Shown here: piece by piece, positions 1 through 27,232 of the stretch
Position numbering within the stretch: position 1 is the first letter of the stretch
Layout: every line of letters starts with the position of its first letter
Source of the DNA: Gemmatimonadales bacterium
GTDB taxonomy: Bacteria; Gemmatimonadota; Gemmatimonadetes; Gemmatimonadales; GWC2-71-9
Assembly (NCBI GenBank): GCA_035688895.1
Contig: DASSML010000079.1
Location: 1-35,498 of the forward strand
Direction of reading: 5' to 3'
DNA length: 35,498 nt
Notes under the pieces: model-generated
Database searches by the model: none
Seen by the model: only the letters and a program-made list of their open reading frames with translations
Told to the model about the DNA's origin: nothing
Program-made: the position numbers and the translations under genes

Positions 1-533
1 GCGCGGTCGACCGAGAAGATGATGTCGAAGCTGGGAATCTTCTTCTCGATCAGACTCCACTCATCCACCCGGCGAGCGCCCTCGAGCAGCAGGAACTCGG
101 GATTGATCCGGACCAGGAGATCCTCCCGCTCCGGGCGGACGCCGGCCTCGAAGTTGAACGTCCCCGAGCTCCAGGTGAACAGGTAGTAGACCGCCTCCTC
201 GATCTGGTGCCGGACCCACTGCTCCAGCTCGGGACGCGCGATCGCTCCCTGCTCCACCAGGATCTCGCCCAGTTTGTGCTCCCGATCGTCGCGCTGCTGC
301 TCGATCGCGGCGGTGAGCTGCTCCGGTGTGATCCGGCCGCTCGCCACCATGATGTCGCCCAGGCGATCCCGGCGATTGACGATGGCGGCGAAGACGATGT
401 GCCCTTCGTCGAAATAGATGGTGCCGAAGTTGTGTCGATCGGCGAGCGCGAGACAGCCGGTGCGGCGACCCAGAAACAGCAGCTGGATCACGTCCGGAAG
501 GCTGGCTTCCTTGAGGCTGCCCTTGATCGCCAT
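1..533 (-). CDS. PATAN/DUF4388-domain protein, N-terminal ~177 aa (C-terminus lies beyond the window start)
   Basis: There is no stop in the window, so this ORF is absent from the track. Reverse-strand translation from ATG 533..531 reads MAIKGSLKEASLPDVIQLLFLGRRTGCLALADRHNFGTIYFDEGHIVFAA...GRITPEQLTAAIEQQ...GEILVEQGAIARPELEQWV...YYLFTWSSGTFNFEAG...LLLEGARRVDEW. This is colinear with the N-terminus of the 4854..5903 protein (LKELHIQDVFQLLDLGRKSGVLRV...GKITPEQLERA...FELLGWTEGYFRFEEG...LLMEAARRLDEW), the PATAN/DUF4388 pattern. The ATG overlaps the upstream TGA by 1 nt (TGATG at 531-535). Confidence 0.8.
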   Translation of the reverse strand, partial: MAIKGSLKEASLPDVIQLLFLGRRTGCLALADRHNFGTIYFDEGHIVFAAIVNRRDRLGDIMVASGRITPEQLTAAIEQQRDDREHKLGEILVEQGAIARPELEQWVRHQIEEAVYYLFTWSSGTFNFEAGVRPEREDLLVRINPEFLLLEGARRVDEWSLIEKKIPSFDIIFSVDR

Positions 534-2554
534 CAGCGCCACTCCTCCAGCAGGCGGTCGCCGATCTCGGGCCACTCCCACACGGTCTTCTCGCGGCTGC
601 GGGCGCCCCCGGCCGTAGGCGCGACGATCCCGCTGGACCGGCCCGGCCCGGACTTGCGCGGCGGTGGCGATGGCATGACTCCGTCGAGCACTTCGCGCGC
701 CAGCGCGGCCGTGGCGGGCTGCCCCCGGGCCTCCGCGGCGTTAAGGACCCGCTGTACCTGCGCCACGACGACGCGGACGGAGTCGGCAGGTCGGGAGGCG
801 AGATAGGTCGCGAGCTCGGGTTCGATCGTGCCCGGGCGGACCGAAAGCGTCTTCGCGACGACGACTTCCCGGACTTCGGGATCGGGCGCCGGAAGCTCGA
901 CCACCAGCCCGCCCTCCAGGCGGGTGCGGAGCCGCGGTTCCAGCCCTGCGATGGCCGCGGGCGCCGCAGCCGAGGTAAAGACGAGCTGGCGGCCCGACTC
1001 GACCAGAAGGTTGAAGAGGAGGAAGAGCTCTTCCTGGGTCCGGTCCTTCTCGCCGATGAGGTGCACGTCGTCCAGCAGCAGGGCGGTGCAGCGACGGTAG
1101 CGCTGTCGCCAGGCGCCCACCGTGTCGCGGTCGATCGCGTCGATCAGCTCGGCGGTGAACTCGGGCGCGCTGAGACAGGCCACCGGGCCGGTGCAGCGCT
1201 GCGCGAGCTGGTTGCCGATCGCATGGAGAAGGTGGGTCTTGCCCGCCCCGCCCCCGCCGACCAGGACGAGCGGGTTGTACCGCGCACCGGGTTCCTCGGC
1301 AACGACCCGCGCCGCCTGCAGGGCCACCCGGGCGCTCGATCCTTCGATGAGATCGGCCAGCTGCCAGATCGGAGAGGGCGCCGGTGGAGGCACCGCACCG
1401 TTCCGGGCCCGCAGCAGCAACGCCTCCGCCGAGGGAATGTCGGCAGGGTCGCGGAATGCCGGCGAGCCGGCCAGCTCCGGCGCCAGGTCCGCTGCCTCGG
1501 CCTCCATGGCCCTGAGCCGCTCCACGTCGCGCTCGAACCCGTGGACCGCCAGGTCCGCGTCGGGGGCCACCTCCGCGTCGAGCAACGCCTCGAGCCGACC
1601 GGTCCGATACCCTTCGCCCTGCCAGCGCAGGATGGCGGCGCCGATCTGGGCCCGCCACGCGTCCACCTGTTGAGCGACGGTGGCGTGGATCTCACTCAGA
1701 AAATCGGAAAACTCGTCCTTGTCGGCATTAGTGCGCTGGGACGGTACGGCGGCAGAGACGGCCGGCTCTGGCTCACTCGGCGCGCTCACGATCGCAGGCT
1801 CGGCGTCTCCGCTCGTGCCGCCGTCCAGCCGAACGGCCGTACCGCCGATGAGCTCCCGCGCTTCGGCCGGCGACATCGGGGCGTTACCCACCGCCTGGTG
1901 AGCGATCATCCGGTTGAGCGCGCCGAGCAGCTCGCGGACGTTGTCGATGTTGAGCCCGGCGACGGCCTCGAGCACCCCTTCGGCGAAGACCGCCCGGCGC
2001 TCCTCCGCCTTCCGCCGGAGGATGGCCACCCGGGTCTCGTAGTCCGGAGCGGCGACGTCGATAATGAGGCCGCCGGCGAAGCGCCGGATGAGCCGCTCGT
2101 CGAGGGCCTCGATCTCCGCGGGCGGCCGGTCACTGGTGAGCACGATCTGCCGATTCGCCGTCTGCAGCGCGTCGGTGAGGCGGAGCAGCTCGGCCTGCAT
2201 CTCCCGACGGTGGGTGAGGAACTGTACGTCATCGACGAGGAGGAGATCCACGTCGAGGAACCGCTTGCGATAGGCCTCGCCCTGACCCGCGGCGATGGCG
2301 GCGTGGAAGGCCTCGACGAACTCGTCGAGCGTGAGATACTCCACCGCGAGCCGCGGATTGATGGCCCGGGCGGCGTGTCCCACGCCCATCAGGAGGTGGG
2401 TCTTGCCCAGCCCCGGTCGGGCGTAGATGAACAGCGGGTTGTACACCGTGCCCGGGGCCTCGGCCACCGCCTTGGCGGCGGTGACCGCCAGGCGGTTGGC
2501 CGCTCCGACCACGAAGGTCTCGAAGCGGTAGAGGGGGTTGAGGGTGACCGTCAC
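533..2554 (-). CDS. Tandem DnaA-domain-III (Hda-like x2) AAA+ ATPase, 673 aa, without DnaA domains I/II or DNA-binding domain IV
   Basis: This is the internal GTG-started part of track ORF 533..3601. The GTG at 2554..2552 overlaps the mglA TGA (GTGA). Module 1 has LNPLYRFETFVVG, Walker A RPGLGKTHLL, Walker B LLLVDDVQF, sensor-1 VLTSDRPP, box VII DERLIRRFAGGL and NVRELLGALNRM. Module 2 has Walker A GGGGAGKTHLL, Walker B ALLLDDVHL, VFTSAAAP, EPRLRTRLEGGL and SVRVVVAQVQRVL. A helical linker of about 170 aa separates the modules. The C-terminal tail is Pro-rich and ends WEWPEIGDRLLEEWR. I see no DnaA domain IV helix-turn-helix signature. Confidence 0.8.
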   Translation of the reverse strand: MTVTLNPLYRFETFVVGAANRLAVTAAKAVAEAPGTVYNPLFIYARPGLGKTHLLMGVGHAARAINPRLAVEYLTLDEFVEAFHAAIAAGQGEAYRKRFLDVDLLLVDDVQFLTHRREMQAELLRLTDALQTANRQIVLTSDRPPAEIEALDERLIRRFAGGLIIDVAAPDYETRVAILRRKAEERRAVFAEGVLEAVAGLNIDNVRELLGALNRMIAHQAVGNAPMSPAEARELIGGTAVRLDGGTSGDAEPAIVSAPSEPEPAVSAAVPSQRTNADKDEFSDFLSEIHATVAQQVDAWRAQIGAAILRWQGEGYRTGRLEALLDAEVAPDADLAVHGFERDVERLRAMEAEAADLAPELAGSPAFRDPADIPSAEALLLRARNGAVPPPAPSPIWQLADLIEGSSARVALQAARVVAEEPGARYNPLVLVGGGGAGKTHLLHAIGNQLAQRCTGPVACLSAPEFTAELIDAIDRDTVGAWRQRYRRCTALLLDDVHLIGEKDRTQEELFLLFNLLVESGRQLVFTSAAAPAAIAGLEPRLRTRLEGGLVVELPAPDPEVREVVVAKTLSVRPGTIEPELATYLASRPADSVRVVVAQVQRVLNAAEARGQPATAALAREVLDGVMPSPPPRKSGPGRSSGIVAPTAGGARSREKTVWEWPEIGDRLLEEWR

Positions 2555-3153
2555 GCGACCGGCGTCCCCGCCGCGAGGCGCTTGAGCACCATCTCCGAGA
2601 TACCCCGCAGGGTCTCGAACACCCCCGTGCCGTGCAGCGAGTCGGCGCCGAAACTGGGGACCGCCCGGAAATTGAGGGCGTCGTCCATTTCGGCCGGGGC
2701 GAGGATGAGGTCGCTCGGCAGATCCTGCTTGTTGTATTGGAACACCACCGGCAGCTGCCGGACATCCACCCCTTCGCTCAACAGGTTGTCCTGCAGGTTC
2801 TGCAGGCTCTCGAGGTTGTCGTCGAAGCGGCGAGCCTGGCTGTCGGCCACGAACACCACACCGTCGGCGCCCTGGAGCACCAGCTTGCGGGTGGCGTTGT
2901 AGTAGCTCTGCCCGGGTACCGTGTAGAGCTGGAACTTGGTGGTGAACCCCGAGATGCTGCCCAGCTCGAGGGGGAGGAAATCGAAGAAGAGCGTGCGATC
3001 GGTCTGAGTCGCGAGCGAGACCATCCGTCCCCGTCGAGTCTCCGGCACGCGGCCATAGACGTACTGCAGGTTGGTCGTCTTTCCGGACCGTCCGGGCCCG
3101 TAGTAGACGATCTTGCAGGTAATCTCGCGCGCGGTGAAGTTGACCAGGGACAT
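2551..3153 (-). CDS. mglA: MglA, Ras-like small GTPase of the motility/polarity type
   Basis: The 200-aa ORF reads MSLVNFTAREITCKIVYYGPGRSGKTTNLQYVY...TDRTLFFDFLPLELG...LYTVPGQSYYNATRKLVLQGADGVVFVADSQ...FQYNKQDLP. It aligns along its whole length with Myxococcus xanthus MglA (P-loop GPGxxGKTT, TDRTLFFDF switch I with the intrinsic Arg, VPGQ, NKxD). ATG at 3153. Confidence 0.95.
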   Translation of the reverse strand: MSLVNFTAREITCKIVYYGPGRSGKTTNLQYVYGRVPETRRGRMVSLATQTDRTLFFDFLPLELGSISGFTTKFQLYTVPGQSYYNATRKLVLQGADGVVFVADSQARRFDDNLESLQNLQDNLLSEGVDVRQLPVVFQYNKQDLPSDLILAPAEMDDALNFRAVPSFGADSLHGTGVFETLRGISEMVLKRLAAGTPVA

Positions 3154-3156: not shown

Positions 3157-3618
3157 CTACCGTCCGAAGAGCGCTTTGAGACTGGCATTGAGCTCGTGCT
3201 CGAAGTTCTCGGCCAGGGTCGGCCTCGCCGCCGCTTCGCGCGGCGCCACGGCCTCGAGCTCGCTCACCATCCGATTGAAGAACAGCTGCACGATCCCCAC
3301 CGAGGTCTCCGGCCCGAACACCACCAGCCCGATCCAACGGCCCCGCGGCGTGGCGAAGACGGAGAGCAGGCAGCTCTGCCGGGCCCCGTGATGTACCAGC
3401 GCCTCGAACCGGGTTCCTCCCATCAGCCGAGCCATCTCCTCGGTCGAGGCGACGATTCCGGCACCCAGTGCGGCCGCGGTCATGACATCGAGCGACCGGG
3501 CGAAGCCGTGCTGCGCGACGACCTGGCCCGAGGAGGTCATCAGCAGCGTGAGACGCGCCGCCGATTCGTCGAGAAAGGCCTGCAGCGGAAGCTCCACCCA
3601 TGGCTCGAGCGCGCGCAT
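3157..3618 (-). CDS. mglB: MglB, Roadblock/LC7-fold GTPase-activating protein (GAP) for MglA
   Basis: This 153-aa ORF lies immediately upstream of mglA (3-nt gap). The Roadblock core is LTLLMTSSGQVVAQHG...VMTAAALGAGIVASTEEMARLMGG..FEALVHHGARQSCLLSVF...IGLVVFGPETSVGIVQLFFNRMVSEL. The C-terminal extension ends NASLKALFGR, like the MglB Ct-helix. The ATG overlaps the upstream stop by 1 nt (TGATG at 3616-3620). Confidence 0.88.
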   Translation of the reverse strand: MRALEPWVELPLQAFLDESAARLTLLMTSSGQVVAQHGFARSLDVMTAAALGAGIVASTEEMARLMGGTRFEALVHHGARQSCLLSVFATPRGRWIGLVVFGPETSVGIVQLFFNRMVSELEAVAPREAAARPTLAENFEHELNASLKALFGR

Positions 3619-3965
3619 CAGCCGAGGCGTCCCGCGGCGTCGAGCATCTCGAGCCGCGCCAGGCCGATGTTGGCGTCCGGCCCCACGACCGCCACCAGTA
3701 CCAGATCGTTCGGCGCCGGCGCCGCGAGCAACGACCCCTGCTCCGCCCGCAGATGGACGAAGAGCGGCGATTCCAATCCAGCCGCGCCCGTGGTGCGGAG
3801 CAGCCGCCCCACCAGCGCCCCCGCGAGCGCCGCCGCGGCCCGACCGTCGACCCCGTCCATCAGCTGCTCGGCCACGACCAGCCCGTCACCGGCCGAGGCG
3901 AGCAGCGCGCCGCGCACGCCGGGCACCCGGGTGACCCGGTCCAGCACCATGGTCTCGGGGGTCAT
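3618..3965 (-). CDS. Stand-alone Roadblock/LC7-domain protein (MglC-like paralogue)
   Basis: The 115-aa ORF reads LDRVTRVPGVRGALLASAGDGLVVAEQL.GVDGRAAAALAGALVGRLLRTT...SPLFVHLRAEQGSLLAAPAPNDLVLVAVVGPDANIGLARLEM, a typical Roadblock pattern. It has an ATGA overlap with the upstream gene. Confidence 0.8.
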   Translation of the reverse strand: MTPETMVLDRVTRVPGVRGALLASAGDGLVVAEQLMDGVDGRAAAALAGALVGRLLRTTGAAGLESPLFVHLRAEQGSLLAAPAPNDLVLVAVVGPDANIGLARLEMLDAAGRLG

Positions 3966-4861
3966 GAGCCCCGCTCCAGCCAGCGGCGGGCGACTCGCGC
4001 GGCCCGCTCGGCCAGCAGACCCAGGCGAGCCATGGGCATCGATGGCTCCCGCGACGCCAGCAGGACGGTTTCCCCGCTCGGCGGCACCAGGACCAGGAAC
4101 GCGGCCGGAGTCTCGATGGCGATCGAGTGCCAGCTGCCGAGCCCGAGGAGCCGGGAAGCGCGGCCCGCCTCGCGCACGACTCCGCCGAGCTCCGCGGCAA
4201 CGCGGTCTCCCGCATCGCCACCGCCGGGCGCCGCGAGCGTGCCACCCAGGCGGAGGCCGTTCGCGTCGGCCAGGAGGAGGCCGCGCTCTCCGTCGCTGAA
4301 ATCGGCGAACGGTGAATCGGCCGAGGCGACCGGTGCCGGCTGCACGGCCGGAGGAACGGGTGTCGGGGCCTCCGCCGGCGCACTGGGCGCTGCCAGGGGA
4401 GCCATCGAGACCAAGCCCTGCGGAGCCGGCGGTCCCGCCTCGGGCGGTTCGCCCTGCCCCGCGATTGTGCGCTCCATCCGTGCGATCGCCGCCGGAATCG
4501 TGACATCGTCGGGATCGGCCTCCGCGGCGCGGGCGAGGTGCTCCAGCGCCGCCGGTACGTCGCCCGCGCGGAAGTAGAGGAAGGCGAGCCCCTTCAGCGC
4601 GCTGCTTCGCAGGGGATCGAGGCGGAGGGCGTCGGCCCAGGCGTCGAAGGCGCCGGCCAGGTCGCCCTGATCGCTCAGGATCCGCGCGACCAGGTCGTGG
4701 GCGTCGGCCAGCCCCGGGTAGCGGGACAAGCCGCCGCGCGCCACCTTGGCCGCCGCCTCGTACTGCCCCCGCCGCCGCAGAGCCTCGCCCAGCTCGAGAA
4801 AGGCGAGGCTGGTCGGCTCGTCGGCGAGGCGGGCGGTCAGGGCGCGGATGTCGTCACTCAC
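3962..4861 (-). CDS. TPR - Pro/Ala-rich linker - Roadblock/LC7 fusion protein
   Basis: A 299-aa ORF with a GTG start at 4861. The N-terminal ~125 aa are TPR-like (GEALRRRGQYEAAAKVARGGLSRYPGLADAHDLVARILSDQGDLAGAFDAWADALRLDP...GLAFLYFRAGDVPAALEHLARAAEADP). The linker is PPEAGPPAPQ...PTPVPPAVQPAP. The C-terminal ~110 aa are Roadblock-like (GLLLADANGLRLGG...AAELGGVVREAGRASRLLGLGSWHSIAIETPAAFLVLVPPSGETVLLASREPSMPMARLGLL). Confidence 0.75.
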   Translation of the reverse strand: MSDDIRALTARLADEPTSLAFLELGEALRRRGQYEAAAKVARGGLSRYPGLADAHDLVARILSDQGDLAGAFDAWADALRLDPLRSSALKGLAFLYFRAGDVPAALEHLARAAEADPDDVTIPAAIARMERTIAGQGEPPEAGPPAPQGLVSMAPLAAPSAPAEAPTPVPPAVQPAPVASADSPFADFSDGERGLLLADANGLRLGGTLAAPGGGDAGDRVAAELGGVVREAGRASRLLGLGSWHSIAIETPAAFLVLVPPSGETVLLASREPSMPMARLGLLAERAARVARRWLERGS

Positions 4862-5903
4862 GGTGACGCTCCAGCTCCCGCACCAGCGTGTGCACCGCCT
4901 GTCGCATCCGTTCCACCGACGTCTCCTCCGCCTCTTCCCCCGGCGCGCGGGGACCGAACCGGCTCCACGCGGCCCAGGACTCGAGCGCCCGGTCGAACCG
5001 GCCCATGGCCGCCTGGCACATGCCGAGCATCCGCCGCGCCTCGGGCATGAGCGGGTCCTGGCGCAGGACCTCCTCCAGCGCGCCGGCGGCGATTTCGTAC
5101 TCTCCCTGCGCGAGCGCCTCTCGGGCAGGGACCAGGAGCGCGGCCGGGTCGCGCCCGGTCTCCGGCTCGACGCCCGGCTGCGCGGGATCGCTCAGCACCA
5201 GCACCCCCGCCGTCGTGAGCCCGTACACCGTGCGCGCGACCTCGAACTCGGATCGGCCGAGGGCGTGCGCCAGCGCGTGGAGATCGCGCTCGCCGTCGAC
5301 CGCGGCCAGGACCTCCCATTCGAACGGGACCAGATCGAGCGGTGAGCCGGCGAGATCCTCGCTGGATGGCAGCCGGGGCACCAACCCGAGGTGCGCCACC
5401 GTCGAACCGATCCGGGACCACTCGTCCAGCCGTCGCGCCGCTTCCATCAGCAATGCTTCGGTGGGAAACCGGACCGGAGACTCCACCGCGGCGTGCCCTG
5501 GCGCTCCCTCCTCGAACCGGAAGTACCCCTCGGTCCAGCCGAGCAGCTCGAACACCGTCTCCTCGACCTGACCCTTGAGTTGTCGCTCGAGCTGCCGTCG
5601 ACCGATCGCGCCGAGGTCCACCAGGATGTCGCCCAGCCGGCGGGCATCGCCGGTGTTCTGCAGGTGCCGGGCGCGCTCGAGCTGCTCGGGCGTGATCTTG
5701 CCGTGCCGCACCAGGCGGGAGCCGATCGGCTGGTCGTCGCTCCCGAGCGAGGCCGCAACGACGCCGCCCCGGTCGAAGGAGACCGTCGCGGCGGCCTGGC
5801 GCAGCTCCGACGTCACCCGCAGCACCCCACTCTTCCGGCCGAGGTCGAGCAGCTGGAAGACGTCCTGGATGTGCAGCTCCTTGAGCGGACCTTCGAGCGC
5901 CAC
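4854..5903 (-). CDS. PATAN/DUF4388-domain protein with C-terminal TPR region
   Basis: A 349-aa ORF with a GTG start at 5903. The N-terminus is MALEGPLKELHIQDVFQLLDLGRKSGVLRVTS...FDRGGVVAA...GKITPEQLERARHLQ...LGDILVDLGAI...FELLGWTEGYFRFEEG (PATAN with its helical insert). The middle region FEWEVLAAVDGERDLHALAHALGRSEFEVARTVYGLTTAGVL looks like a winged helix. The C-terminus is TPR-like (AREALAQGEYEIAAGALEEVLRQDPLMPEARRMLGMCQAAMGRFDRALESW). Confidence 0.85.
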   Translation of the reverse strand: MALEGPLKELHIQDVFQLLDLGRKSGVLRVTSELRQAAATVSFDRGGVVAASLGSDDQPIGSRLVRHGKITPEQLERARHLQNTGDARRLGDILVDLGAIGRRQLERQLKGQVEETVFELLGWTEGYFRFEEGAPGHAAVESPVRFPTEALLMEAARRLDEWSRIGSTVAHLGLVPRLPSSEDLAGSPLDLVPFEWEVLAAVDGERDLHALAHALGRSEFEVARTVYGLTTAGVLVLSDPAQPGVEPETGRDPAALLVPAREALAQGEYEIAAGALEEVLRQDPLMPEARRMLGMCQAAMGRFDRALESWAAWSRFGPRAPGEEAEETSVERMRQAVHTLVRELERHRE

Positions 5904-5906: not shown

Positions 5907-8597
5907 TCACCCCGCCGAGGCAGCGAAGATGTGCTGGAGGTCCCGGGCGCTGCGCGCGCGACTCCGGGCCTGCGCCGCGTAGGGGCCGCCGGGATCGAGC
6001 TGCACCACCCGCTCCCAGGCCGCGACCGCGCGGTCGTACTGCCGCTGGCGCGCCAATGCGGCGCCCTGGTGGTACAGGGCGCCCGCGTGCTCCGGGTCGA
6101 AGCGAAGCACCCGGGCGAAGGCCTCGAGCGCTTGCGTGGTACGGCCTTCCTCGAGCAGGGTGGCGCCGAGTGCGGTGAGAGCCTCCAGATCGTAGGGGTC
6201 GGACTCCAGCAGGCGGATGAGCACGCCGATCGCGCGGGTCGGGCCGTCGGTGCGGCGCAGCAGGTCGGCCAGCGCCAGCGCGGCGGCGGAGTAGGTCGGG
6301 AGCAGATCGAGGGCCCGCTCGTAGGCGGCGCGCGCCGAAGTCGCGTTGCCGCGCTCTTCCTCCAGCCCTCCCAGCTCGAACCAGACCCGGACCAGCGAGG
6401 GGTCGAGCTGCAGCGCGGCGTTGAATGCGGCAAGCGCGGCCGAGCGATCGCCCAGGCGGGATGAGACCTGGGCCTGGAGGTGGAAGAGGTCGGGGCGGCC
6501 GGGCGCGAGCACCTGGGCCTCCCGGATGCAGTCGAGCGCGCCGAGCGCGTCACCCACCGCCAGCCGCACCCGCGCCCGGGCGACCAGTACCTCGACGTCG
6601 CCCCGCACCCGCAAGGCCAGCTCGTCGGCGAGCGGCGCGGCGTCGCCGGCCCAGCCCAGCGCCAGGAGTGCCCGGATCTCGCCCAGGGTGGCGTCCGGAT
6701 CGTCGGGTGCGGCGGCCCGCGCCTCGCGGTAGCGCTCGAGCGCCTCCCCGTAAAGGCCACGCTTGGCGAAGATGTCGCCCAGCAGCACCGCGGTCGTGCT
6801 GCGCGGTGCGCCCCGTCCCCCGGCCCGGCTCAGCTCGGCCATGGCCAGGTCGAGGAGTCCCTTGGCGATGTAGTCGCGGGCGAGATCGAGCGCGTCGCCC
6901 GGCGCCGCCGCCGGAGCCCCGGCCGGCGCCGGGGGCGCCAGCTCCTCGAACAGACGATCGAGCACCGGTGCGTCGAAGCTGAACTCGCCGGCCAGGTCCT
7001 CGCCCGTGCTCTCCGCCGAGAGCTCGGGCGCGATGGCGATGGTCGGGTCTTCGTACTGCAGATCGATCGTGAGCGAGAACTTCTGGGGCACGTAGAGCGG
7101 CTCGAGCTCCAGCGCGCGCCGGGTCTCCCGCAGGGCGGCGTCGAAGTCGCCGAGCTGGCTCAGCACGAAGCTCAGGTTGTAATGGGCGGCCGCGAAGGCG
7201 GGGTCGGCATCTACCGCCCGACCGAAGGCGTTGCGGGCATCCTCATAGCGCCGGAGCTCCATGAGGACCAGGCCCACGCCGTTCCAGGCCACGGCGCTGC
7301 CCTGCTGCTCGGTGAGCGCCTGCTGATACTCGCCGAGCGCCGAGCGGAACTGCCGCCGCTGGAAGTAGAGCAGTCCCAGGTTGAGCCGCGCGGCGAAGAG
7401 CGGTCGCTCCCCGGAGATCGCCTCCCGGAACGCCGCTACCGCCGGGTCGGCGCCGGCCTCGTGCGCCCGGGCCACGCCCAGGTTGTTCCAGGCCAGCTGG
7501 TACCCCCGGTCCACCGCCACCGCGTGCTCGTAGGAGTCGACCGCCTCCGCCCGCCGGCCCGCCTGGTGCAGGCAGACGCCGCGCTCGTTCCACAGCTTGG
7601 GGCTATCGGCGTATTCCCGCACCAGTCCGTCGTACAGCTCGAGCGCCGCGCCCAGCTCGCGCCGAAGCAAGTGCACCTCGGCCATGGCCTGGAGGTTGAG
7701 CCGCCGATCCTCGCCGGCCTCGAGCGCGAGGCGGTACTCCCGCAGTGCCTCGTCGTGGTAGCCCTTCTGCCGGAAGGCGAGTCCGAGATTAAAGTGGGCC
7801 AGCGGTGCATCGGGCACCGGCTGGGGCGTCTCGGCGCGGACCGCGTCGCCCGCGTGCTCGCCGGGCCGACCGTCGTAGCGGTCGAGGGCCAGGTTCGCCT
7901 GCGCCCGGGCCAGCGTCGGGTTGAGCGCGATGGCGCGCTTGGTCGCCTCGCGCGCGGCCTCGTGCTGCCCCAAATCGCCGTACACGAAGGCGAGCAGATA
8001 GTGCGCTTCGGCGTAGTCCGGATTCCGGGCGATCGCTTCCTTCAGCTCGGCCAGGGCTGGCTCGTTGAGCCCCCGGTTGTACAGCACCTCGCCGTAGTAG
8101 AAGCGCGCCACCGCGCTCTGGGGATCCTGCCGGCAGGCCCGCTCGAGCCAGGCGCTGGCCTGGTCGAGCTGACCCAGCGCCTTCTCGGCGAGGGCCAGCT
8201 GGACCATGGCCGGAACATCGTGGGGATGCCACGCCAGGAGGGCGTCGAACTCGGCGATCGCTTCGGCGTGACGGCCGAGCGCGGCGTACGAGCGGGCCAG
8301 CTCCCAGCGCCCGTCGCGGTCCTCCGGGCTGAGGCGCACCCGCTCGCGCAGCTCGGTGATGCGCCGGTCGTAGTGCCCGCTCTCCCGGTAGGCGATGTCG
8401 AGGTTGGCCTGGGCCACCTGCATCTTGGGATCGAGCTCGAGCGCCCGGGCAAAGGCGAGTATCGCCTCGTCGGTCAGGCCCTTCTGATAGTAGAGGACGC
8501 CGAGGTTGTTGTGCGCGCCCGCATCGGACGCGTCGATGCGTCGCGCGAAGGAGCGCAACACCGCGAGATCGCGCTCCGACAGCACGGGGGCGGGCAT
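5907..8597 (-). CDS. Large tetratricopeptide-repeat (TPR) protein, 896 aa
   Basis: The 34-aa TPR pattern runs throughout, for example AHNNLGVLYYQKGLTDEAILAFARALELDP, AEAHYLLAFVYGDLGQHEAAREATKRAIALNP and AHFNLGLAFRQKGYHDEALREYRLALEAG. ATG at 8597. Gaps to both neighbours are 3-4 nt. No other domain is recognisable by eye. Confidence 0.9.
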   Translation of the reverse strand: MPAPVLSERDLAVLRSFARRIDASDAGAHNNLGVLYYQKGLTDEAILAFARALELDPKMQVAQANLDIAYRESGHYDRRITELRERVRLSPEDRDGRWELARSYAALGRHAEAIAEFDALLAWHPHDVPAMVQLALAEKALGQLDQASAWLERACRQDPQSAVARFYYGEVLYNRGLNEPALAELKEAIARNPDYAEAHYLLAFVYGDLGQHEAAREATKRAIALNPTLARAQANLALDRYDGRPGEHAGDAVRAETPQPVPDAPLAHFNLGLAFRQKGYHDEALREYRLALEAGEDRRLNLQAMAEVHLLRRELGAALELYDGLVREYADSPKLWNERGVCLHQAGRRAEAVDSYEHAVAVDRGYQLAWNNLGVARAHEAGADPAVAAFREAISGERPLFAARLNLGLLYFQRRQFRSALGEYQQALTEQQGSAVAWNGVGLVLMELRRYEDARNAFGRAVDADPAFAAAHYNLSFVLSQLGDFDAALRETRRALELEPLYVPQKFSLTIDLQYEDPTIAIAPELSAESTGEDLAGEFSFDAPVLDRLFEELAPPAPAGAPAAAPGDALDLARDYIAKGLLDLAMAELSRAGGRGAPRSTTAVLLGDIFAKRGLYGEALERYREARAAAPDDPDATLGEIRALLALGWAGDAAPLADELALRVRGDVEVLVARARVRLAVGDALGALDCIREAQVLAPGRPDLFHLQAQVSSRLGDRSAALAAFNAALQLDPSLVRVWFELGGLEEERGNATSARAAYERALDLLPTYSAAALALADLLRRTDGPTRAIGVLIRLLESDPYDLEALTALGATLLEEGRTTQALEAFARVLRFDPEHAGALYHQGAALARQRQYDRAVAAWERVVQLDPGGPYAAQARSRARSARDLQHIFAASAG

Positions 8598-8601: not shown

Positions 8602-9222
8602 TCAGGTCAGGCGAATGGCGTCGAAGATGGCCCGGAGCGAGGGCATGTCGGGCAGGAGCAGGAAATGGCCCATCAGCGGCGCGGCGGTGTTCTCCACCCG
8701 GAACGAGGTCTCCACGCAGAAGACGTAATCGCGGGCATGACCGAAGTTGAGGTAGGCGCTGGTCAGGACCGCCGCGCTCAGGTCCACCACCAGACTGGGG
8801 ACCGAGGGGACCAGCATCATGCCCATGAAATCGCTGAGCGCATTGAGGTACGCGCTGGCGAGGATGTTGCCGGCTTCCTTGAGGCCCGATTGCTCCATGA
8901 TCCCGAACTCCTGGGTGCTCCCGGGCTCGCGGCGCATCAGTATATCACACAGCGCGCGGGCGGAGTCGGCCTGGAACAGGACCAGGGTGCGGCCGGTGAG
9001 ATCGCCCATCATGTGCATCAGGACGGCAGCCATCACCTCGTCGCCACGCCCGACCAGGTCCGTCACGTCCTCCAGCGCCCGCACGTTGACCTCCGGCACG
9101 GCGATCATGATCGTGCGGTTGGTCATCTGCGACAGCGCGGTGGCCGCGTGGCCGGCCCCGATATTGGCGACCTCCCGCAGGGCGTCGAGCTGCAGCTCTT
9201 TCAGCTCCCGGACGTCTTCCAT
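8602..9222 (-). CDS. cheC: CheC-family CheY-P phosphatase
   Basis: A 206-aa ORF. Both CheC active-site motifs (D/S-x3-E-x2-N-x22-P) are intact: DALREVANIGAGHAATALSQMTNRTIMIAVP and SGLKEAGNILASAYLNALSDFMGMMLVPSVP. A GGAGGAG Shine-Dalgarno sequence precedes the ATG at 9222. Confidence 0.9.
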   Translation of the reverse strand: MEDVRELKELQLDALREVANIGAGHAATALSQMTNRTIMIAVPEVNVRALEDVTDLVGRGDEVMAAVLMHMMGDLTGRTLVLFQADSARALCDILMRREPGSTQEFGIMEQSGLKEAGNILASAYLNALSDFMGMMLVPSVPSLVVDLSAAVLTSAYLNFGHARDYVFCVETSFRVENTAAPLMGHFLLLPDMPSLRAIFDAIRLT

Positions 9223-9233
9223 AATTCTCCTCC

Positions 9234-11066
9234 CTACAACAGCGCCGCGGCGTCGAGAATGAGCGCCGGCGCGCCGTCGGCGAGAATCGTCGCTCCACCC
9301 ACGAAGGGCGGCATACCGGTGGGCGCGTCGAACGGCTCGACCACGATGTCCTGCTGACCCGCCAGGGCGTCCACCACGAGCGCCGTCCGACGGTCACCCA
9401 GCTCCAGAATTACGGTGGGCGCGCGCGCAGCCGGCGCCCCGCCGTCTCCCTGCACCAGCTCGCGGAGGTGCACCGTGGGCACCACCTGGTCGCGCACCAG
9501 GAGGGCTTCCCGGTCCCGAACCGAGGTGACGGCGCGGGGATCGAACTCCACCGTCTCCGCCACGTACGCCAGCGGCACGGCGTAGCGCTCGTTGCCGGCC
9601 CGGGCCAGAAGCGCCCGCACGATCGCGAGGGTGAGCGGCACGCGCACGGTGAACGTGGTGCCCCGCCCCAGCTCGCTCCGCACCTCCAGGGTGCCACCCA
9701 GCGCCCGCACCCGGGTCATGGCGACGTCCACTCCGACGCCGCGTCCCGAGACCCCGCTCACGGCCGCCGCGGTGCTGAATCCCGGCCGGGCCAGGACCCG
9801 GAGCAGCAGGTCGTCGGTCAGGGTCTCGGTGCTCGCGTCGGCCAGCCCCTCCCGCTTCGCCTTGGCCAGGATCGCCGCCCGGTCGATACCCTTGCCGTCG
9901 TCGGTCACCCGGAGGGCCACGCTGTTCCGCTCCCGCGCCGCCGAGAGCAGGATGCGCCCTTCCTCTGGCTTGCCCTGGGCCGCCCGGACGTCGGGCCGCT
10001 CGATGCCATGATCGGCCGCGTTCCGGACCAGGTGAAGCAGCGGCTCCCCGATCTCGTCCAGCACCGACCGGTCGAGCTCGATGTCCTCTCCCTCGGCGTC
10101 GAAGCGGATCCGCTTGCCGAGATCGCGGGCCAGGTCGCGGACCAGGCGGGGGAAGCGCTCGAACACCTCGCCCACGGGCGTCATGCGGGCGGCCAGCACC
10201 TCGCCCTGCATCCCCGCCACCAGGCGGGTGACCCGATCGCTCACCTCGGCGAGGTCGGCGTCGCCCGACGCGACGGCCAGCGCGGCCAACCGATTCTTGG
10301 CGACCACCAGCTCGCCGACCTGCTTCATCAGGGCGTCCAGCCGAGCGAGATCCACCCGGATCTGGCGGCCGCGCTCGGCGGTCTCGGCGGCATCGACCGG
10401 ATCGCCGATCGTGACCAGCGCGACCTCCCCGGTGCGTCGGATGATGCGCTCGATGTCACCGTCCGTGGCCAGGGTGGCGAGGCGGAAGCCGAACCGGCCG
10501 TCGAACTCGTCGCGCTCGAACGCCGCTGCCGGTGGCCGGAGGGCGGACACGGCGCCCAGCGGCTCCAGACGGGCCAGGATCAGCGAAGCGCGGGCGCCCC
10601 GCATGACCGCCTCGCGGCGCAAGGTGACTTCCACCGCGCGGGCCCGCGTCGTCTCGGCGGGCCCGATCGCGGTCGCCGCTTCGGTCCCCTGGCCTCCCGC
10701 CACACGGTCGAGCTCCGCCGTGAGCTCCGGGTCGGCAGCGGCATCGGCCCCTCGGGCGGCGTTGTCGACCCCGGTCCCCAGCGCGTCCACCGAGCGGAAG
10801 AGAAGCTGGAAGACGGTGGAGTCGGCGGTCACCCGGCCGCCGCGCAGTGCGTCGAGCAGGTTCTCCAGCCGGTGCGCCAGGTCGGCCACGCCGGCGTAGC
10901 CCATCGTCGCGGCCATGCCTTTTATCGTGTGCACCGCCCGGAACAGTCCGCCCACCGGTGAGCGCGATTCGGGGGCCCGCTCCCACTCGAGCAGGAGCTG
11001 GTTGCACCCGTTCAGGTGCTCCCGGCTCTCGTTGAGAAAGAGCGCGGCGTACTTCGCCAGATCCAC
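9234..11066 (-). CDS. cheA: Chemotaxis histidine kinase CheA (Hpt-dimerisation-HATPase-CheW domains)
   Basis: A 610-aa ORF with a GTG start. P1 is FRAVHTIKGMAATMG and P3 is IRVDLARLDALMKQVGELVV. The HATPase boxes are HLVRNAADHGIE, VTDDGKGID and GVSGRGVGVDV. The C-terminal CheW-like P5 domain is YAVPLAYVAETVEF...IVVEPF. Confidence 0.95.
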   Translation of the reverse strand: MDLAKYAALFLNESREHLNGCNQLLLEWERAPESRSPVGGLFRAVHTIKGMAATMGYAGVADLAHRLENLLDALRGGRVTADSTVFQLLFRSVDALGTGVDNAARGADAAADPELTAELDRVAGGQGTEAATAIGPAETTRARAVEVTLRREAVMRGARASLILARLEPLGAVSALRPPAAAFERDEFDGRFGFRLATLATDGDIERIIRRTGEVALVTIGDPVDAAETAERGRQIRVDLARLDALMKQVGELVVAKNRLAALAVASGDADLAEVSDRVTRLVAGMQGEVLAARMTPVGEVFERFPRLVRDLARDLGKRIRFDAEGEDIELDRSVLDEIGEPLLHLVRNAADHGIERPDVRAAQGKPEEGRILLSAARERNSVALRVTDDGKGIDRAAILAKAKREGLADASTETLTDDLLLRVLARPGFSTAAAVSGVSGRGVGVDVAMTRVRALGGTLEVRSELGRGTTFTVRVPLTLAIVRALLARAGNERYAVPLAYVAETVEFDPRAVTSVRDREALLVRDQVVPTVHLRELVQGDGGAPAARAPTVILELGDRRTALVVDALAGQQDIVVEPFDAPTGMPPFVGGATILADGAPALILDAAALL

Positions 11067-11070
11067 CGGG

Positions 11071-11433
11071 TCAGCCCAGGACCCGCTGGACCGCTTCGAG
11101 CACCCGCGACGGCTGGAACGGCTTGACCACGAAATCCTTGGCCCCCGCCTGGATCGCCTCGACCACGAGGGCCTGCTGCCCCATCGCGCTGCACATGAGG
11201 ATCTTCGCGTCGGGGTCGTTCTTGCAGATCTCCCGCACCGCCTCGATCCCGCCCATGTCGGGCATGACGATGTCCATGGTCACGAGGTCGGGCTTGAGCT
11301 GGCGGAACTTCTCCACCGCCTGGAGCCCGGACTCGGCCTCGCCGACGATCTCGAAGCCGGCCTGGCTGAGGATGTCGCTGATCATGGTGCGCATGAAGAT
11401 GGCGTCGTCGCAGACGAGCACGGTGTGGCTCAC
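11071..11433 (-). CDS. cheY: Single-domain response regulator CheY
   Basis: A 120-aa ORF reading VLVCDDAIFMR...PDLVTMDIVMPDMGG...ILMCSAMG...DFVVKPF. It has a GTG start with a GGAGG Shine-Dalgarno sequence 7 nt upstream. Confidence 0.93.
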   Translation of the reverse strand: MSHTVLVCDDAIFMRTMISDILSQAGFEIVGEAESGLQAVEKFRQLKPDLVTMDIVMPDMGGIEAVREICKNDPDAKILMCSAMGQQALVVEAIQAGAKDFVVKPFQPSRVLEAVQRVLG

Positions 11434-11463
11434 GAGCTAGCCTCCAGAACAGGGAGTGGCCGG

Positions 11464-11913
11464 CTATTGCCCCGCCGAGCCTCCGATGATCGGCGCGAAC
11501 AGCGCGTCGATGTCGAGCAGAATGAAATGCTGGTCGTCGCGCACGCCGACGGCCTTGACCAGCCGAGGGTCTACGCCGGGAAGCTGCGCCCGGGCGGCGA
11601 CCGACCGCTCGGGCACCTCGAGGAAGTCGAGGACCTGTCCGACCGCGAGCCCGTAGCGGCGCTGCCCGACCTGGAGCAGGATGATCGCGCCCTCGTCGTC
11701 GGCCCGGCGGGCCTGGGACAGGAGAACGTGACCGTCGAGGACCGTGAGCAAGGTGCCTCGGACGTTCACCAGTCCTTCCACCGCCTCGGCGACTCCGGGA
11801 ATGCGGGTAGCCGGCAGACGGGGGAGGATCTCCCGCACGATCCCTGCCGGGGCCGCGCAAATCAGCGCACCGATGCGAAAGATGACGGCGTGGAGGGTCG
11901 GGGAGTTAGCCAT
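11464..11913 (-). CDS. cheW: Chemotaxis coupling protein CheW
   Basis: This is the internal ATG (11913..11911) of track ORF 11464..12279. The 149-aa product reads MANSPTLHAVIFRIGALICAAPAGIVREILP...IPGVAEAVEGLVNVRGTLLTVLDG...ILLQVGQRRYGLAVGQVLDFLEVP...ILLDIDALF. The part of the track ORF upstream of this ATG overlaps rluD in another frame. Confidence 0.88.
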   Translation of the reverse strand: MANSPTLHAVIFRIGALICAAPAGIVREILPRLPATRIPGVAEAVEGLVNVRGTLLTVLDGHVLLSQARRADDEGAIILLQVGQRRYGLAVGQVLDFLEVPERSVAARAQLPGVDPRLVKAVGVRDDQHFILLDIDALFAPIIGGSAGQ

Positions 11914-12934
11914 CTCTATTAAAGAAAAGAAGATACCGAAGGGGGTCAGGGCGAGCAACCAGATCTTCGCCAGCGATGACGTGCAATGCACTGCGCAAAT
12001 CGGACGGCCAGTCGGCCTGGAATTCCAGCGGCACGCCGGTAGCGGGATGGCGGAATGCCAGAGCCGCCGCGTGAAGCGCCTGACGAGGGGTCGCGCGCTC
12101 CAGCGCCTCGGCGTCCCGGCGCGCCGCCCCGGACACCCGACGGCTCCCCCCGCCGGTGTAGACCGGATCGCCAACCACGGGGTGGCCGGCGTGCTCGAGG
12201 TGGACCCGGATCTGGTGAGTCCGCCCCGTGTGGAGCTCCAGCCGGAGGAGATCCACCGACCCGAACCGAGCCGCGACATAGGCGTCGGTCCGTGCCGGCC
12301 GACCTGCCGGCTGGACCGACATCCGCTTCCGGTCGCGGGGGTGCCGAGCCAGGGGCGCCTCGATCACGGTGGGGCTCTGGTCCAAATGTCCCCAGGCGAG
12401 GGCCGCGTAGGTGCGCTGGACCCGCCGAGCGGCGATCGCGGCGCCGAGCCGCCGGTGAGCCAGGTCGGTCTTGGCGACGACCATCAGGCCCGAGGTGTCC
12501 CGGTCGAGCCGGTGCACGATGCCCGGGCGTCCGGCGATGCCGCCACCCAGCGCGGTACCCCGGGCCACGAGGGCGTTCACCAGGGTGTCGTCCCAGTGCC
12601 CCGGGGCGGGATGCACCACCAGTCCGGCCGGCTTGTCGAGCACGGCGAGGTGCTCGTCCTCGAAGACGATGGTGAGGGGAATGTGGGCCGGGCGGAGCTC
12701 CCGCACGGGCTGCCGCTCCTCCAGCCGGACCTCGACCGCGTCCCCCCGCTGGAGCGTCTGGCTGGCGCGCCCGGGACGGCCGTTCACCCGGACGGCGCCG
12801 GCCGCGACCAGGCGGGCCGCCTGGGTGCGGGAGAGACTCAATTGGTCGGCGAGATAGCGATCGAGCCGCTCGGTGGCGGCCGTCAGGACGGAGAAGGCGA
12901 TGGTGAGCGCGACGGGAAGCCCCGCCTCGGTCAC
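11906..12934 (-). CDS. rluD: 23S rRNA pseudouridine synthase, RluA/RluD family
   Basis: The GTG at 12934 overlaps the lspA TGA (GTGA). The S4 domain is RLDRYLADQLSLSRTQAARLVAAGAVRVNG and the catalytic motif is HRLDRDTSGLMVVAKT. HTGRTHQIRVHL is also present. The TAA at 11906 overlaps the cheW start by 8 nt. Confidence 0.9.
   Translation of the reverse strand: MTEAGLPVALTIAFSVLTAATERLDRYLADQLSLSRTQAARLVAAGAVRVNGRPGRASQTLQRGDAVEVRLEERQPVRELRPAHIPLTIVFEDEHLAVLDKPAGLVVHPAPGHWDDTLVNALVARGTALGGGIAGRPGIVHRLDRDTSGLMVVAKTDLAHRRLGAAIAARRVQRTYAALAWGHLDQSPTVIEAPLARHPRDRKRMSVQPAGRPARTDAYVAARFGSVDLLRLELHTGRTHQIRVHLEHAGHPVVGDPVYTGGGSRRVSGAARRDAEALERATPRQALHAAALAFRHPATGVPLEFQADWPSDLRSALHVIAGEDLVARPDPLRYLLFFNRDG
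11909..11940 (-). promoter_or_regulatory. AT-rich patch at the rluD 3' end and cheW start; candidate internal promoter or translation-initiation region for the che-mgl block
   Basis: The minus strand reads GGTATCTTCTTTTCTTTAATAGAGATGGCTAA. This is the only strongly AT-rich run for kilobases. The last rluD codons (TAT CTT CTT TTC TTT AAT AGA GAT) break the otherwise GC3-dominated codon usage. TTTAAT/TAATAG lies 4-6 nt before the cheW ATG. Confidence 0.3.
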
Positions 12935-13479
12935 TCCGCGTCGTGTCCCTGGAGCACCGGCGCCGCGGGCGGCTCCGGCTGGCGCACGTCCTCGCGCCAC
13001 ATCGAGACCACGAGCGCGATGGCGCCGCAGCTCACGGCGATGTCGGCCACGTTGAAGGTCGGCCACCGCAGGGCGCCGATGCCGACGTCGAGGAAGTCGA
13101 CCACGCCACGGGTGCTGCGGACCCGGTCGATCAGGTTGCCCGCGGCGCCGCCGGCGACGAGGCCGAGCGCCAGCTGCCGGAACCAGTCGCCGGGAGGACT
13201 GGTACGGGACATCCGCCGCAGGACGACCACGGCCACGATGGCGACCGTGAGGAAGATCCAGCGGGAGTAGGGCCCCAGGTGCAGCCCAAAGGCCGCCCCC
13301 TGGTTGTACACCAGGCGGAGCTGGAACCAATCGCCCAGCACCGCGATGCCCGGGGTCCTGAGAAGTACCGCCTCGGCCACGATCTTGGTGATCAGGTCGA
13401 GCAGGATGACGACGACGGCGGCGATCCAGAAGATCCGCCGCTCCGCCCCGGGCGCCGCTGGATCAGCGGCGCTTTCCAT
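12931..13479 (-). CDS. lspA: Lipoprotein signal peptidase II
   Basis: A 182-aa ORF with LVYNQGAAFG, GGAAGNLIDR, FNVADIAVSCG and four hydrophobic segments. The ATG at 13479 is preceded by a GAGGAAG Shine-Dalgarno sequence. Confidence 0.93.
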   Translation of the reverse strand: MESAADPAAPGAERRIFWIAAVVVILLDLITKIVAEAVLLRTPGIAVLGDWFQLRLVYNQGAAFGLHLGPYSRWIFLTVAIVAVVVLRRMSRTSPPGDWFRQLALGLVAGGAAGNLIDRVRSTRGVVDFLDVGIGALRWPTFNVADIAVSCGAIALVVSMWREDVRQPEPPAAPVLQGHDAE

Positions 13480-13846
13480 CTTCCTCTTTCTCCTTGCAGG
13501 TGATGCACAGGCGCGCGTGCGGCAGGGCGTCGAGTCGCTCGAAGTTGATCTCCTGGCCGCACTGATGGCAATGGCCGAACTTCTCGGGATTGCCGTACAG
13601 CCGGCGCAGTGCCTCGTTCACGTGCCAGAGGTAGCGACCCTCCTGCGAGGCGAAAAGAAACTGCTTCTCCCGCTCCATGGCGTCGGTCCCCTGGTCGGCC
13701 ATGTGGAACGAGTACGACGAGAGATCGCCGTCGGAGGACTGCAGCGTCGCGTTGAACGACTCGTCGTAGTAGCCGAGCTCCTTCATCACCCGGGCTCGCT
13801 CCTCCAGCAGTCGCTTCTCGAGATGTGTCAGCTGCTTCTTGTTCAT
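13463..13846 (-). CDS. DksA/TraR-family C4 zinc-finger protein (YlyA-like position)
   Basis: This is the internal ATG (13846..13844) of track ORF 13463..15118. The 127-aa product reads MNKKQLTHLEKRLLEERARV...HMADQGTDAMEREKQF...FGHCHQCGQEINFERLDALPHARLCITCKEKEE. It has an ATGA overlap with the ileS stop. Confidence 0.88.
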   Translation of the reverse strand: MNKKQLTHLEKRLLEERARVMKELGYYDESFNATLQSSDGDLSSYSFHMADQGTDAMEREKQFLFASQEGRYLWHVNEALRRLYGNPEKFGHCHQCGQEINFERLDALPHARLCITCKEKEEDGKRR

Positions 13847-21395: not shown

Positions 21396-21424
21396 AGCAG
21401 CCCGATACGGCGGCGAACCGGACT

Positions 21425-23385: not shown

Positions 23386-25370
<1,985 letters not shown>

Positions 25371-27222: not shown

Positions 27223-27232
27223 GGGGTCAAAG

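Follow-up and report, generated by a model that had tools for sequence, protein, structure and literature searches.

A tandem DnaA-type ATPase of Gemmatimonadota encoded beside PATAN-TPR and MglA genes

The window analyzed here, a stretch of 35,498 nucleotides from the Gemmatimonadales contig DASSML010000079.1 (assembly GCA_035688895.1), encodes on its reverse strand a 673-amino-acid (aa) protein that carries domain III of DnaA, an AAA+ ATPase module, twice in a single chain (536..2554, stop codon 533-535, GTG start; identified from the open reading frame listing, Pfam and NCBIfam). This tandem ATPase, which we term DnaA2x, is a conserved variant of the DnaA-clade ATPases that is apparently undescribed. 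Its gene is almost always followed by one encoding a protein with a PATAN (DUF4388) domain and TPR repeats, and in one of two groups of loci it is preceded by mglA, Roadblock and chemosensory genes. We put the probability at approximately 0.45 that the ATPase is a non-replicative descendant of DnaA that may act, together with its PATAN-TPR partner, as a nucleotide-driven assembly switch or scaffold.

A DnaA-type ATPase domain is taken to mark replication initiation, but both the phylum-wide family described here and a set of domain fusions found elsewhere indicate reuse of the module in signaling and polarity contexts; an engine for starting replication seems to have been reused for signaling. 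If the proposed role is correct, an AAA+ component would be added to the MglA/MglB/PATAN polarity toolkit, which is currently without one, and the ATPase would be a candidate partner for PATAN-TPR proteins.

Two DnaA-type modules in one chain

The Pfam family Bac_DnaA (PF00308) matched the 673-aa protein in two stretches (E = 5e-96), and the NCBIfam model for DnaA, TIGR00362, scored 455 bits over two stretches that cover only profile positions 103-335 of 437. An earlier note, made from the letters of the window without database searches, had described the same reading frame as holding two DnaA-type AAA+ cores, and every motif string that it quoted is present. The gene junctions it reported were likewise confirmed (all coordinates in this section are on the reverse strand): GTGA at 2554-2551 combines the GTG start of the ATPase gene with the overlapping TGA of mglA, and TGATG at 535-531 combines the TGA of the ATPase gene with the ATG of the downstream PATAN-TPR gene. 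Orthologues keep the N-terminus MT.TLNP.YRF, which reads MTVTLNPLYRF in the window protein.

Module 1 (aa 5-235; 1850..2542) carries the full catalytic set and is closest to true DnaA domain III. Its residues 5-230 align with domain III of Bacillus subtilis DnaA (8bv3/8btg) with zero indels and 44-50% identity (E = 2e-55), and the AlphaFold model superposes on 8bv3 with a template modeling (TM) score of 0.92 and a root mean square deviation (rmsd) of 1.9 A (Foldseek). Module 2 (aa 396-626; 677..1369) keeps the P-loop, Walker B, Arg finger and sensor 2, and scored 199.8 bits to TIGR00362, compared with 259.5 bits for module 1. Residue conservation was assessed in 78 Gemmatimonadales-type sequences, comprising the window protein and 77 orthologues. 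The Walker A (GLGKT), Walker B (DD), sensor-1 (SDR), box VII (R154/R158) and sensor-2 (R207) elements of module 1 were each conserved in at least 77 of the 78, and residues G438, K439, D495, D496, R541, R545 and R594 of module 2 were invariant, while the sensor-1 Asp/Arg of module 2 has been lost (SDR replaced by S-A/V-x). In DnaA, the box VII arginines reach into the ATP site of the adjacent protomer. Judged by these residues, ATP binding seems feasible for both modules, and the trans-acting arginines are kept in each.

Modules 1 and 2 share 37% identity, which points to an old duplication. A duplication introduced during assembly, a possibility raised in the earlier note, was rejected because of this level of divergence and because the same architecture recurs on hundreds of independent contigs.

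The modules differ at positions that we take, from residue roles described in the Escherichia coli literature, to be the H and B motifs with which DnaA binds single-stranded DNA (ssDNA), i.e., columns 190 and 224 in B. subtilis numbering. Compared with 79 genuine DnaAs, a set gathered by a pattern search (TQEEFFH plus NPLFIY) so that conservation near those motifs is inflated, the module 1 column of B. subtilis I190 (E. coli V211) is His in 95% of sequences, and column 224, an Arg in DnaA (E. coli R245), is Glu in 100%. The 79 DnaAs came from a contig search with the alignment of a subgroup of low guanine-plus-cytosine (GC) content, whose patterns hit shared AAA+ motifs, such that most of the loci obtained were genuine dnaA genes of other phyla. 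The adjoining helix of module 1 is also mostly replaced (KERTQEEFFHTFN in DnaA becoming RREMQAELLRLTD). Module 2 retains the DnaA-like I, R and R at B. subtilis columns 190, 224 and 206, respectively (R206 corresponding to E. coli R227). Because the H/B motif positions of module 1 carry different, invariant residues, the pattern fits a groove that has been selected for a new ligand. Module 1 is accordingly best described as combining a predicted full hydrolysis set with a putatively re-selected groove, and a regulatory or binding role seems the better fit for module 2.

Neither end of the chain has the additional domains of DnaA. DnaA_N (PF11638) had no Pfam match in the 673-aa protein, whose first four residues are followed directly by LNP.YRF, a motif of domain III, and Bac_DnaA_C (PF08299), the helix-turn-helix of domain IV, had no match by Pfam or NCBIfam; in the structure model, the C-terminus consists of a disordered tether and, after it, a short peptide. 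A cryptic domain IV, which formed part of another outcome that the earlier note had named as undercutting its reading, was rejected on the same grounds, as neither Pfam nor NCBIfam nor the structure model showed one. The window protein is not a DnaA, since domains I and IV were searched for with these hidden Markov models (HMMs) and not found, in line with the note, which had seen neither. It is not an Hda either. The beta-clamp-binding motif of Hda is of the QL[SP]LPL type, and inspection of the N-terminus (MTVTLNPLYRF) showed that no such motif is present there. The Hda model TIGR03420 scored 158.6 bits for the whole protein against a cut-off of 194.8 (76.7 for module 1 and 87.6 for module 2), and the remaining Hda models in NCBIfam scored far under their cut-offs. 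The label of a doubled Hda, under which the protein was first noted, should be replaced by that of a doubled DnaA domain III, because each module scores far better to DnaA than to Hda.

The tandem ATPase shares with DnaA domain III the initiator-clade AAA+ fold. Each of its modules has Walker A and B, the box VII arginines and sensor 2, and module 1 has sensor 1 as well. Unlike DnaA, it is without domains I, II and IV, has two modules per chain that are split by a private helical domain, adds a docking-type C-terminal peptide and has replaced the H/B motif positions of module 1; moreover, it is encoded in a polarity/chemosensory operon, whereas DnaA is encoded beside dnaN. Hda and HdaA are likewise DnaA relatives reduced to an AAA+ module that keeps the arginine finger and lacks a domain for DNA binding, but Hda is a single module with an N-terminal clamp motif that acts at the replisome, and the tandem ATPase has two modules and no clamp motif.

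The segment between the modules had been read as a helical linker of about 170 aa. A helical, folded domain does occupy aa 281-384 of it, but the preceding aa 239-279 (1718..1840) are disordered (pLDDT, the per-residue model confidence, approximately 30-40) and poorly conserved, with a mean column conservation of 0.16 and many gapped columns. The helical middle domain (aa 280-384; 1403..1717) is specific to the family (DEFxxFLxxV...W...G[YF]R) and, when modeled alone, reached a pLDDT of 87 and a predicted TM score (pTM) of 0.70. Its fold had no significant match in the PDB (best E = 1.6), and it matched no family in Pfam or NCBIfam.

Module 2 is followed by a Pro/Gly-rich flexible tether (aa 627-651; 602..676; pLDDT <50) and a conserved C-terminal peptide, RSREKTVWEWPEIGDRLLEEWR (aa 652-673; 536..601), which is a putative docking motif with the consensus E-K-x-V-W-x-W-P-x3-D-R-L-I-E-E-x-x-COOH. 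The length of the tether varies family-wide, such that 60 to >600 residues separate box VII from the conserved Trp. In 176 of the 194 proteins that bear the motif, from both of the clades described below, the invariant Trp nonetheless lies exactly 13 residues from the end of the chain, and the motif is present in distant representatives of the family too. The peptide keeps a fixed distance to the free C-terminus while the tether before it varies in length, which suggests that the chain end is what is recognized. The family plan consists of DnaA module 1, the DEFxxFLxxV middle domain, a second DnaA-type module (active or degenerate), the tether and the EKxVWxWP...EE peptide. The window protein has every one of these features, with the PATAN gene downstream at 1-533.

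Two further candidate identities were considered and rejected. Foldseek comparison with type II double-ring unfoldases (ClpB and p97) gave an rmsd of 19-30 A at 14-17% identity, the likeness being merely that of two P-loop modules, and PADLOC, consulted for anti-phage defense, gave trivial local P-loop and TPR matches only.

Distribution and gene neighborhoods in Gemmatimonadota

With a word-indexed search, at least 120 clusters at ≥70% identity were obtained, consisting of full-length proteins of 641-702 aa, and an exhaustive HMMER search of 1.84 billion representatives added dozens more full-length representatives with identities down to approximately 34%. Altogether, approximately 200 distinct orthologues were gathered (202 unique full-length proteins were counted; loci L001-L161 and L241-L318). 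DNA patterns for the middle domain identified 160 relatives among 185,579 species-representative genomes, and the best 80 of these 160 were all titled as metagenome-assembled genomes (MAGs) of Gemmatimonadota except for two (L020 and L259). One of the two, in a Solirubrobacterales bin (L020), and a locus in a Gemmatimonadales bin (L021) share matching coordinates and identities and apparently represent one 4070-bp contig; in the other (L259), the family locus lies inside an Acidimicrobiia bin. Both are probably binning errors rather than true occurrences outside the phylum. A low-GC member (P0176) likewise comes from a bin labeled Gemmatimonadetes. Within the limits of the family-specific searches, the family is specific to Gemmatimonadota.

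Database records name these proteins "DnaA/Hda family protein [Gemmatimonadales bacterium]" or, in Joint Genome Institute (JGI) data, "chromosomal replication initiator protein DnaA". The curated cut-off of TIGR00362 (343.9) is passed by the whole window protein only through the sum of its modules, each of which falls below it alone, and this summed two-module score probably explains the JGI names (proteins P0003-P0120). Many JGI records are affected by this systematic mis-annotation, through which origin prediction and counts of single-copy markers in Gemmatimonadota genomes can go astray. The literature searched held no description of the tandem ATPase, in agreement with the earlier note, which knew of no function for such a protein, and full-text searches linked no DnaA-type ATPase to MglA, PATAN or Roadblock. 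A systematic survey of MglA neighborhoods reported PATAN and no DnaA-like gene (PMC4316618).

Two proteins with unusual domain content were noted during the searches. In one of 357 aa (P0250), which had the look of a Gemmatimonadota DnaA, an N-terminus with a genuine DnaA domain I is joined near Walker A to module-1-like sequence that then runs out of frame; mis-assembly of the metagenome at GLGKTHL, a motif common to both parts, probably accounts for this apparent chimera, and the protein was not used. Another (P0195), which is also 673 aa long, has two DnaA domain III modules and, after them, a genuine domain IV helix-turn-helix (Bac_DnaA_C, E = 4e-24).

In the window, the ATPase gene is part of a long cluster on the reverse strand that is headed by che genes encoding CheW (11467-12279), CheY (11074-11433), CheA (9234-11063) and CheC (8602-9219), all assigned by Pfam (8602..12279 overall). 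These are followed by genes for a large TPR protein (5910..8597; 896 aa, with a TPR match of E = 2e-83 in the orthologue of a Gemmatimonadaceae locus, L243), an upstream copy of the PATAN(DUF4388)-TPR protein (4857..5903; 349 aa; DUF4388 E = 3e-33, TPR), a TPR and Roadblock protein (3965..4861; 299 aa; Pfam TPR and a weak Robl_LC7 match, the L243 orthologue also carrying Robl_LC7), a second Roadblock/LC7 protein (3621..3965; 115 aa; Pfam Robl_LC7 E = 1.6e-9) and an MglB-like Roadblock/LC7 protein (3160..3618; 153 aa; NF052242 MglB E = 1e-9, Pfam Robl_LC7). Next comes mglA itself (2554..3153, stop codon 2551-2553; 200 aa), translationally coupled to the ATPase gene, whose full-length product scores 243 bits to Myxococcus xanthus MglA (5ymx, 6h17) and 223 bits to Thermus thermophilus MglA (3t12). 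Downstream of the ATPase gene, the 5' part of the second PATAN(DUF4388)-TPR gene (1..533, DUF4388 E = 9e-39) runs off the window; its full-length orthologues, as in L007, L110 and L243, are approximately 540 aa long and likewise combine PATAN and TPR.

This arrangement is highly conserved. In all 80 of the closest loci, which show 57-89% identity, the genes run TPR(896)-PATAN_TPR-TPR_Roadblock-Roadblock-MglB-MglA-ATPase-PATAN_TPR as far as the contig reaches. Locus L243, described by precomputed Pfam labels, matches the order of the che genes as well and continues beyond the region covered by the window (RluD-CheW-CheY-CheA-CheC-TPR-PATAN_TPR-TPR_Roadblock-Roadblock-MglB-MglA-ATPase-PATAN_TPR(540 aa)-CheR-CheD-CheB-CheW-CheW-TPR-Peptidase_MA ... 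RsmH). Across the Gemmatimonadales-type loci, mglA lies directly 5' of the ATPase gene in 124 of the 126 that could be assessed, so that the expectation of the earlier note that homologues would be enriched beside mglA, mglB, Roadblock and PATAN genes held. In 101 of these loci the end of mglA and the beginning of the ATPase gene share 4 nt, and in 18 they share 1 nt (119/124 together). The 3' neighbor is the near-constant one: a PATAN-TPR gene immediately follows the ATPase gene in 195 of 197 assessable unique loci, with a 1-nt overlap between stop and start in 141/197, nearly all of the others within approximately 50 nt and a maximum gap of 100 nt.

A second set of loci was found with an alignment of distant family members, and most of these are titled Longimicrobiales or plain Gemmatimonadota. 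None of the 80 Longimicrobiales-type loci has an MglA match within 8 kb of the ATPase gene and no che genes were seen near it, whereas an orthologue of the PATAN-TPR gene follows in 76 of the 80. Because these loci keep PATAN-TPR without mglA, the core unit is the tandem ATPase with PATAN-TPR, and the linkage to MglA and Che is clade-specific. For example, one such locus (L110, OZ252109.1) reads DivIVA-PNP-IleRS-RluD-ATPase-PATAN_TPR-Peptidase_MA, with flanks as in L243 but neither che nor mgl genes. In this comparison, which also took in the window (8602-18376), the che and mgl genes appear as blocks nested around the ATPase/PATAN-TPR pair, between conserved flanks of IleRS/RluD on one side and Peptidase_MA on the other, and they may have been either gained in Gemmatimonadales or lost in Longimicrobiales.

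The Longimicrobiales-type proteins have also lost the P-loop of module 2. Among the 202 unique full-length proteins, 120 combine an intact module 2 P-loop with mglA upstream and PATAN-TPR downstream, and a further two have the P-loop and mglA upstream with a downstream gene that could not be assessed. The P-loop is absent from 72 proteins that have PATAN-TPR downstream and no mglA upstream, and from three with PATAN-TPR downstream and an upstream gene that could not be assessed; the remaining five are mixed exceptions. Expressed differently, mglA is directly upstream in 122 of 124 cases with an intact P-loop, compared with 2 of 75 in which the P-loop is absent.

DnaA-type fusions and the possible role of the tandem ATPase

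Domain fusions provide a second line of evidence on the context in which DnaA-type modules are used. Within the Longimicrobiales-type set, one protein (P0223, 738 aa) has a receiver domain in place of the usual C-terminal tail (Pfam E = 1.5e-11). By eye, the position of its phospho-acceptor Asp seems to be Ala, and the domain may be a pseudo-receiver. In other phyla, proteins of 1876-1994 aa combine MshEN (the N-terminal domain of PilB-type proteins), a DnaA module, a coiled coil of approximately 1200 aa and a second DnaA module. At one locus (L319:4517-15985; GCA_900174595.1, FWPV01000121.1), three consecutive genes encode MshEN with one or two DnaA-type modules, a fourth encodes MshEN only, and one of the products is 1994 aa long with a coiled coil of approximately 1200 aa. 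These genes sit between the gene for a prepilin peptidase (PilD) and those for PilB, PilT, PilC, a PilS-like kinase and a sigma-54 activator (PilR). A further group (P0411-P0506; approximately 1360-2150 aa) joins a DnaA-type module to long TPR arrays, and its named members are Sumerlaeota and Hydrogenedentota; some proteins in this group bear zinc ribbons or HEAT repeats in place of TPR. The sole neighborhood of a DnaA-TPR fusion that was viewed (L320:10001-14101) was uninformative. No published description of either the MshEN-DnaA or the DnaA-TPR fusion proteins was found.

The MshEN-DnaA and DnaA-TPR proteins resemble the tandem ATPase as apparently non-replicative users of DnaA-type modules, some of them in tandem, that are associated with pilus, polarity or TPR domains. 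They differ in that MshEN or TPR is fused to the module, whereas TPR is encoded by the next-door gene in Gemmatimonadota; in addition, the WxWP C-terminal motif is lacking in the MshEN-DnaA giants. The fusion links all point toward polarity and pilus signaling, and none toward replication. PATAN is an output domain that co-occurs with GspE_N/MshEN domains, and in Synechocystis it binds the N-terminal, GspE_N/MshEN-bearing part of PilB1, the pilus extension ATPase (bioRxiv 10.1101/2021.06.11.447907). PATAN and TPR proteins also surround the MglA-SgmX module for pilus polarity in Myxococcus, where TPR proteins such as SgmX are effectors of MglA (PMC11580455). The PatA-type PATAN proteins (PixE/PixG in Synechocystis) and the MglA/MglB/SgmX polarity module (Myxococcus) use the same PATAN, TPR, Roadblock/MglB, MglA and Che partner domains as the cluster described here, but neither system includes a DnaA-type AAA+ protein, and the PATAN proteins of Gemmatimonadota bear TPR rather than receiver domains. 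A looser parallel is found in STAND NTPases with TPR arms, in which a P-loop oligomerization module is combined with a TPR signaling hub. The likeness is one of possible working only, as STAND proteins have NB-ARC or NACHT modules, whereas the tandem ATPase belongs to the DnaA initiator clade, has its TPR partner on a separate polypeptide and is not a member of that family.

Taken together, these observations suggest the following working model for a nucleotide-driven switch or scaffold. ATP would drive modules to associate head to tail, either in the same chain or across chains, in the way that DnaA filaments form, and the acidic C-terminal peptide would dock on the TPR or PATAN partner. Module 1 would serve as the catalytic module with a re-purposed ligand groove, and module 2 as a regulatory module whose ATPase function would not be needed where MglA and Che are lacking. 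For Gemmatimonadales, the assembly state might be set by, or read together with, MglA-GTP and the Che pathway; it could in turn control a polar machine, for example type IV pili, or some other function in polarity or at the division site. The best reading of the two types of locus is that Gemmatimonadales recruited the ATPase/PATAN-TPR pair into a Che-MglA polarity pathway. The earlier note had proposed a partner of the MglA module, and this idea can be kept in part: a possible role as an MglA effector or regulator is suggested by genetic linkage in one clade, in which nearly all of the mglA-adjacent genes are coupled, but that linkage is absent from the Longimicrobiales-type set, where PATAN-TPR is the retained neighbor.

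A more far-reaching version of the model appears doubtful to us, although it is not a negligible prospect. In that version, the family, along with certain pilus-locus and TPR-fusion proteins from other phyla, would represent an unrecognized class of non-replicative DnaA-derived AAA+ ATPases whose ATP-dependent head-to-tail assembly forms the engine or timer of a circuit controlling polarity or type IV pili, with MglA gating it directly in Gemmatimonadales and the peptide docking on PATAN-TPR. If true, such an MglA-gated AAA+ switch would be a relay from a GTPase to an AAA+ protein, without described precedent in bacterial polarity. Some Gemmatimonadota divide by budding, and an ATPase specific to the phylum is a candidate determinant of its cell polarity.

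Several observations weigh against the proposed switch or scaffold. All of the functional links are drawn from gene order, sequence and domain fusions, and the gene order is confined to Gemmatimonadota and hence partly inherited. The correlation between the module 2 P-loop and MglA is confounded by phylogeny, as the two groups are two clades and the correlation may for that reason reflect one or a few evolutionary events. The full-length AlphaFold model has a low pTM of 0.41, and the mutual arrangement of the modules was not confidently predicted. No pilus genes occur anywhere in the window, which leaves the presumed output machine without a local counterpart. In addition, nucleic-acid binding by module 2 would be compatible with the DnaA-like ssDNA-contact residues that it retains. 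Finally, in a low-GC lineage (L241), the gene downstream of the ATPase is not a PATAN gene and a large TPR gene lies upstream. The 200-aa gene downstream at this locus was considered as a hidden PATAN and rejected (hhalign probability of 0.3%).

Among the alternatives, a regulator of replication initiation that ties the cell cycle to polarity is unlikely. Such a protein would co-assemble with DnaA and cap its filaments or, in the manner of Hda, donate an arginine finger, so that initiation would be tuned to the state of the pole or bud. The identity of approximately 50% between module 1 and B. subtilis DnaA domain III, without indels and with R154/R158 and the ATP-site residues kept, would suit co-assembly, as would a module 2 in which R206 (E. 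coli R227) and the residues of the H/B motifs are DnaA-like. In addition, divIVA lies near the ATPase locus in the window, and rsmH within approximately 10 kb of it in L243. Hda and HdaB are precedents for truncated DnaA relatives with an action on DnaA (PMC7049699). However, the tandem ATPase begins at domain III with no clamp-binding N-terminus, its scores to the Hda models fall below their cut-offs, and the helices of module 1 that would line the ssDNA channel of DnaA have been swapped for different, invariant residues. Neither the window nor the other loci inspected for gene content have dnaN or other replication genes as neighbors, and the fusion partners that were found are all signaling, pilus or TPR domains. 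The link to the replication cycle that was floated in the earlier note consequently gained no positive evidence.

Less probable again is that the protein positions or segregates a chemosensory or polar cluster. PpfA and ParC are ParA-like proteins encoded in che operons, and the tandem ATPase would be their counterpart on an initiator AAA+ fold, with module 2 as a nucleic-acid tether. This would agree with the ssDNA-contact residues kept by module 2 and with the composition of the L243 che operon, which has three CheW genes along with those for CheA, CheY, CheC, CheR, CheD and CheB, and in whose listed products no Pfam MCP domain was recorded. Nevertheless, Longimicrobiales-type loci retain the ATPase without che genes nearby, and the near-constant partner is PATAN-TPR rather than a Che protein; moreover, similarity to ParA/MinD is absent, and the protein has no double-stranded DNA-binding domain. 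That the gene is a decayed or redundant dnaA paralogue, next to mglA by historical accident, is scarcely credible despite the restriction of its synteny to one phylum and the decay of module 2 in one clade, given approximately 200 distinct full-length orthologues with invariant catalytic residues, conservation that reaches down to approximately 34% identity, a conserved private middle domain and C-terminal motif, and start/stop overlaps that are kept on both sides.

Other genes of the window

Beyond the che genes, the window encodes LspA (12934-13479) and IleRS (13846-17145), followed by DivIVA (17864-18376, reverse strand). The latter belongs to a run of genes at 17864-27351, upstream of the ATPase cluster and on the same strand, that encode DivIVA, a TMEM260-like glycosyltransferase, CdaA (a c-di-AMP synthase with a DAC domain), FolP, FtsH and TilS. 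Further on lie two divergent hybrid histidine kinase genes (27236-30640, reverse strand; 30168-32012, forward strand), with the architectures GAF-PAS-HATPase-REC and PAS-HisKA-HATPase-REC. The two reading frames overlap by approximately 470 nt at their 5' ends, and at least one of the starts is probably located further downstream.

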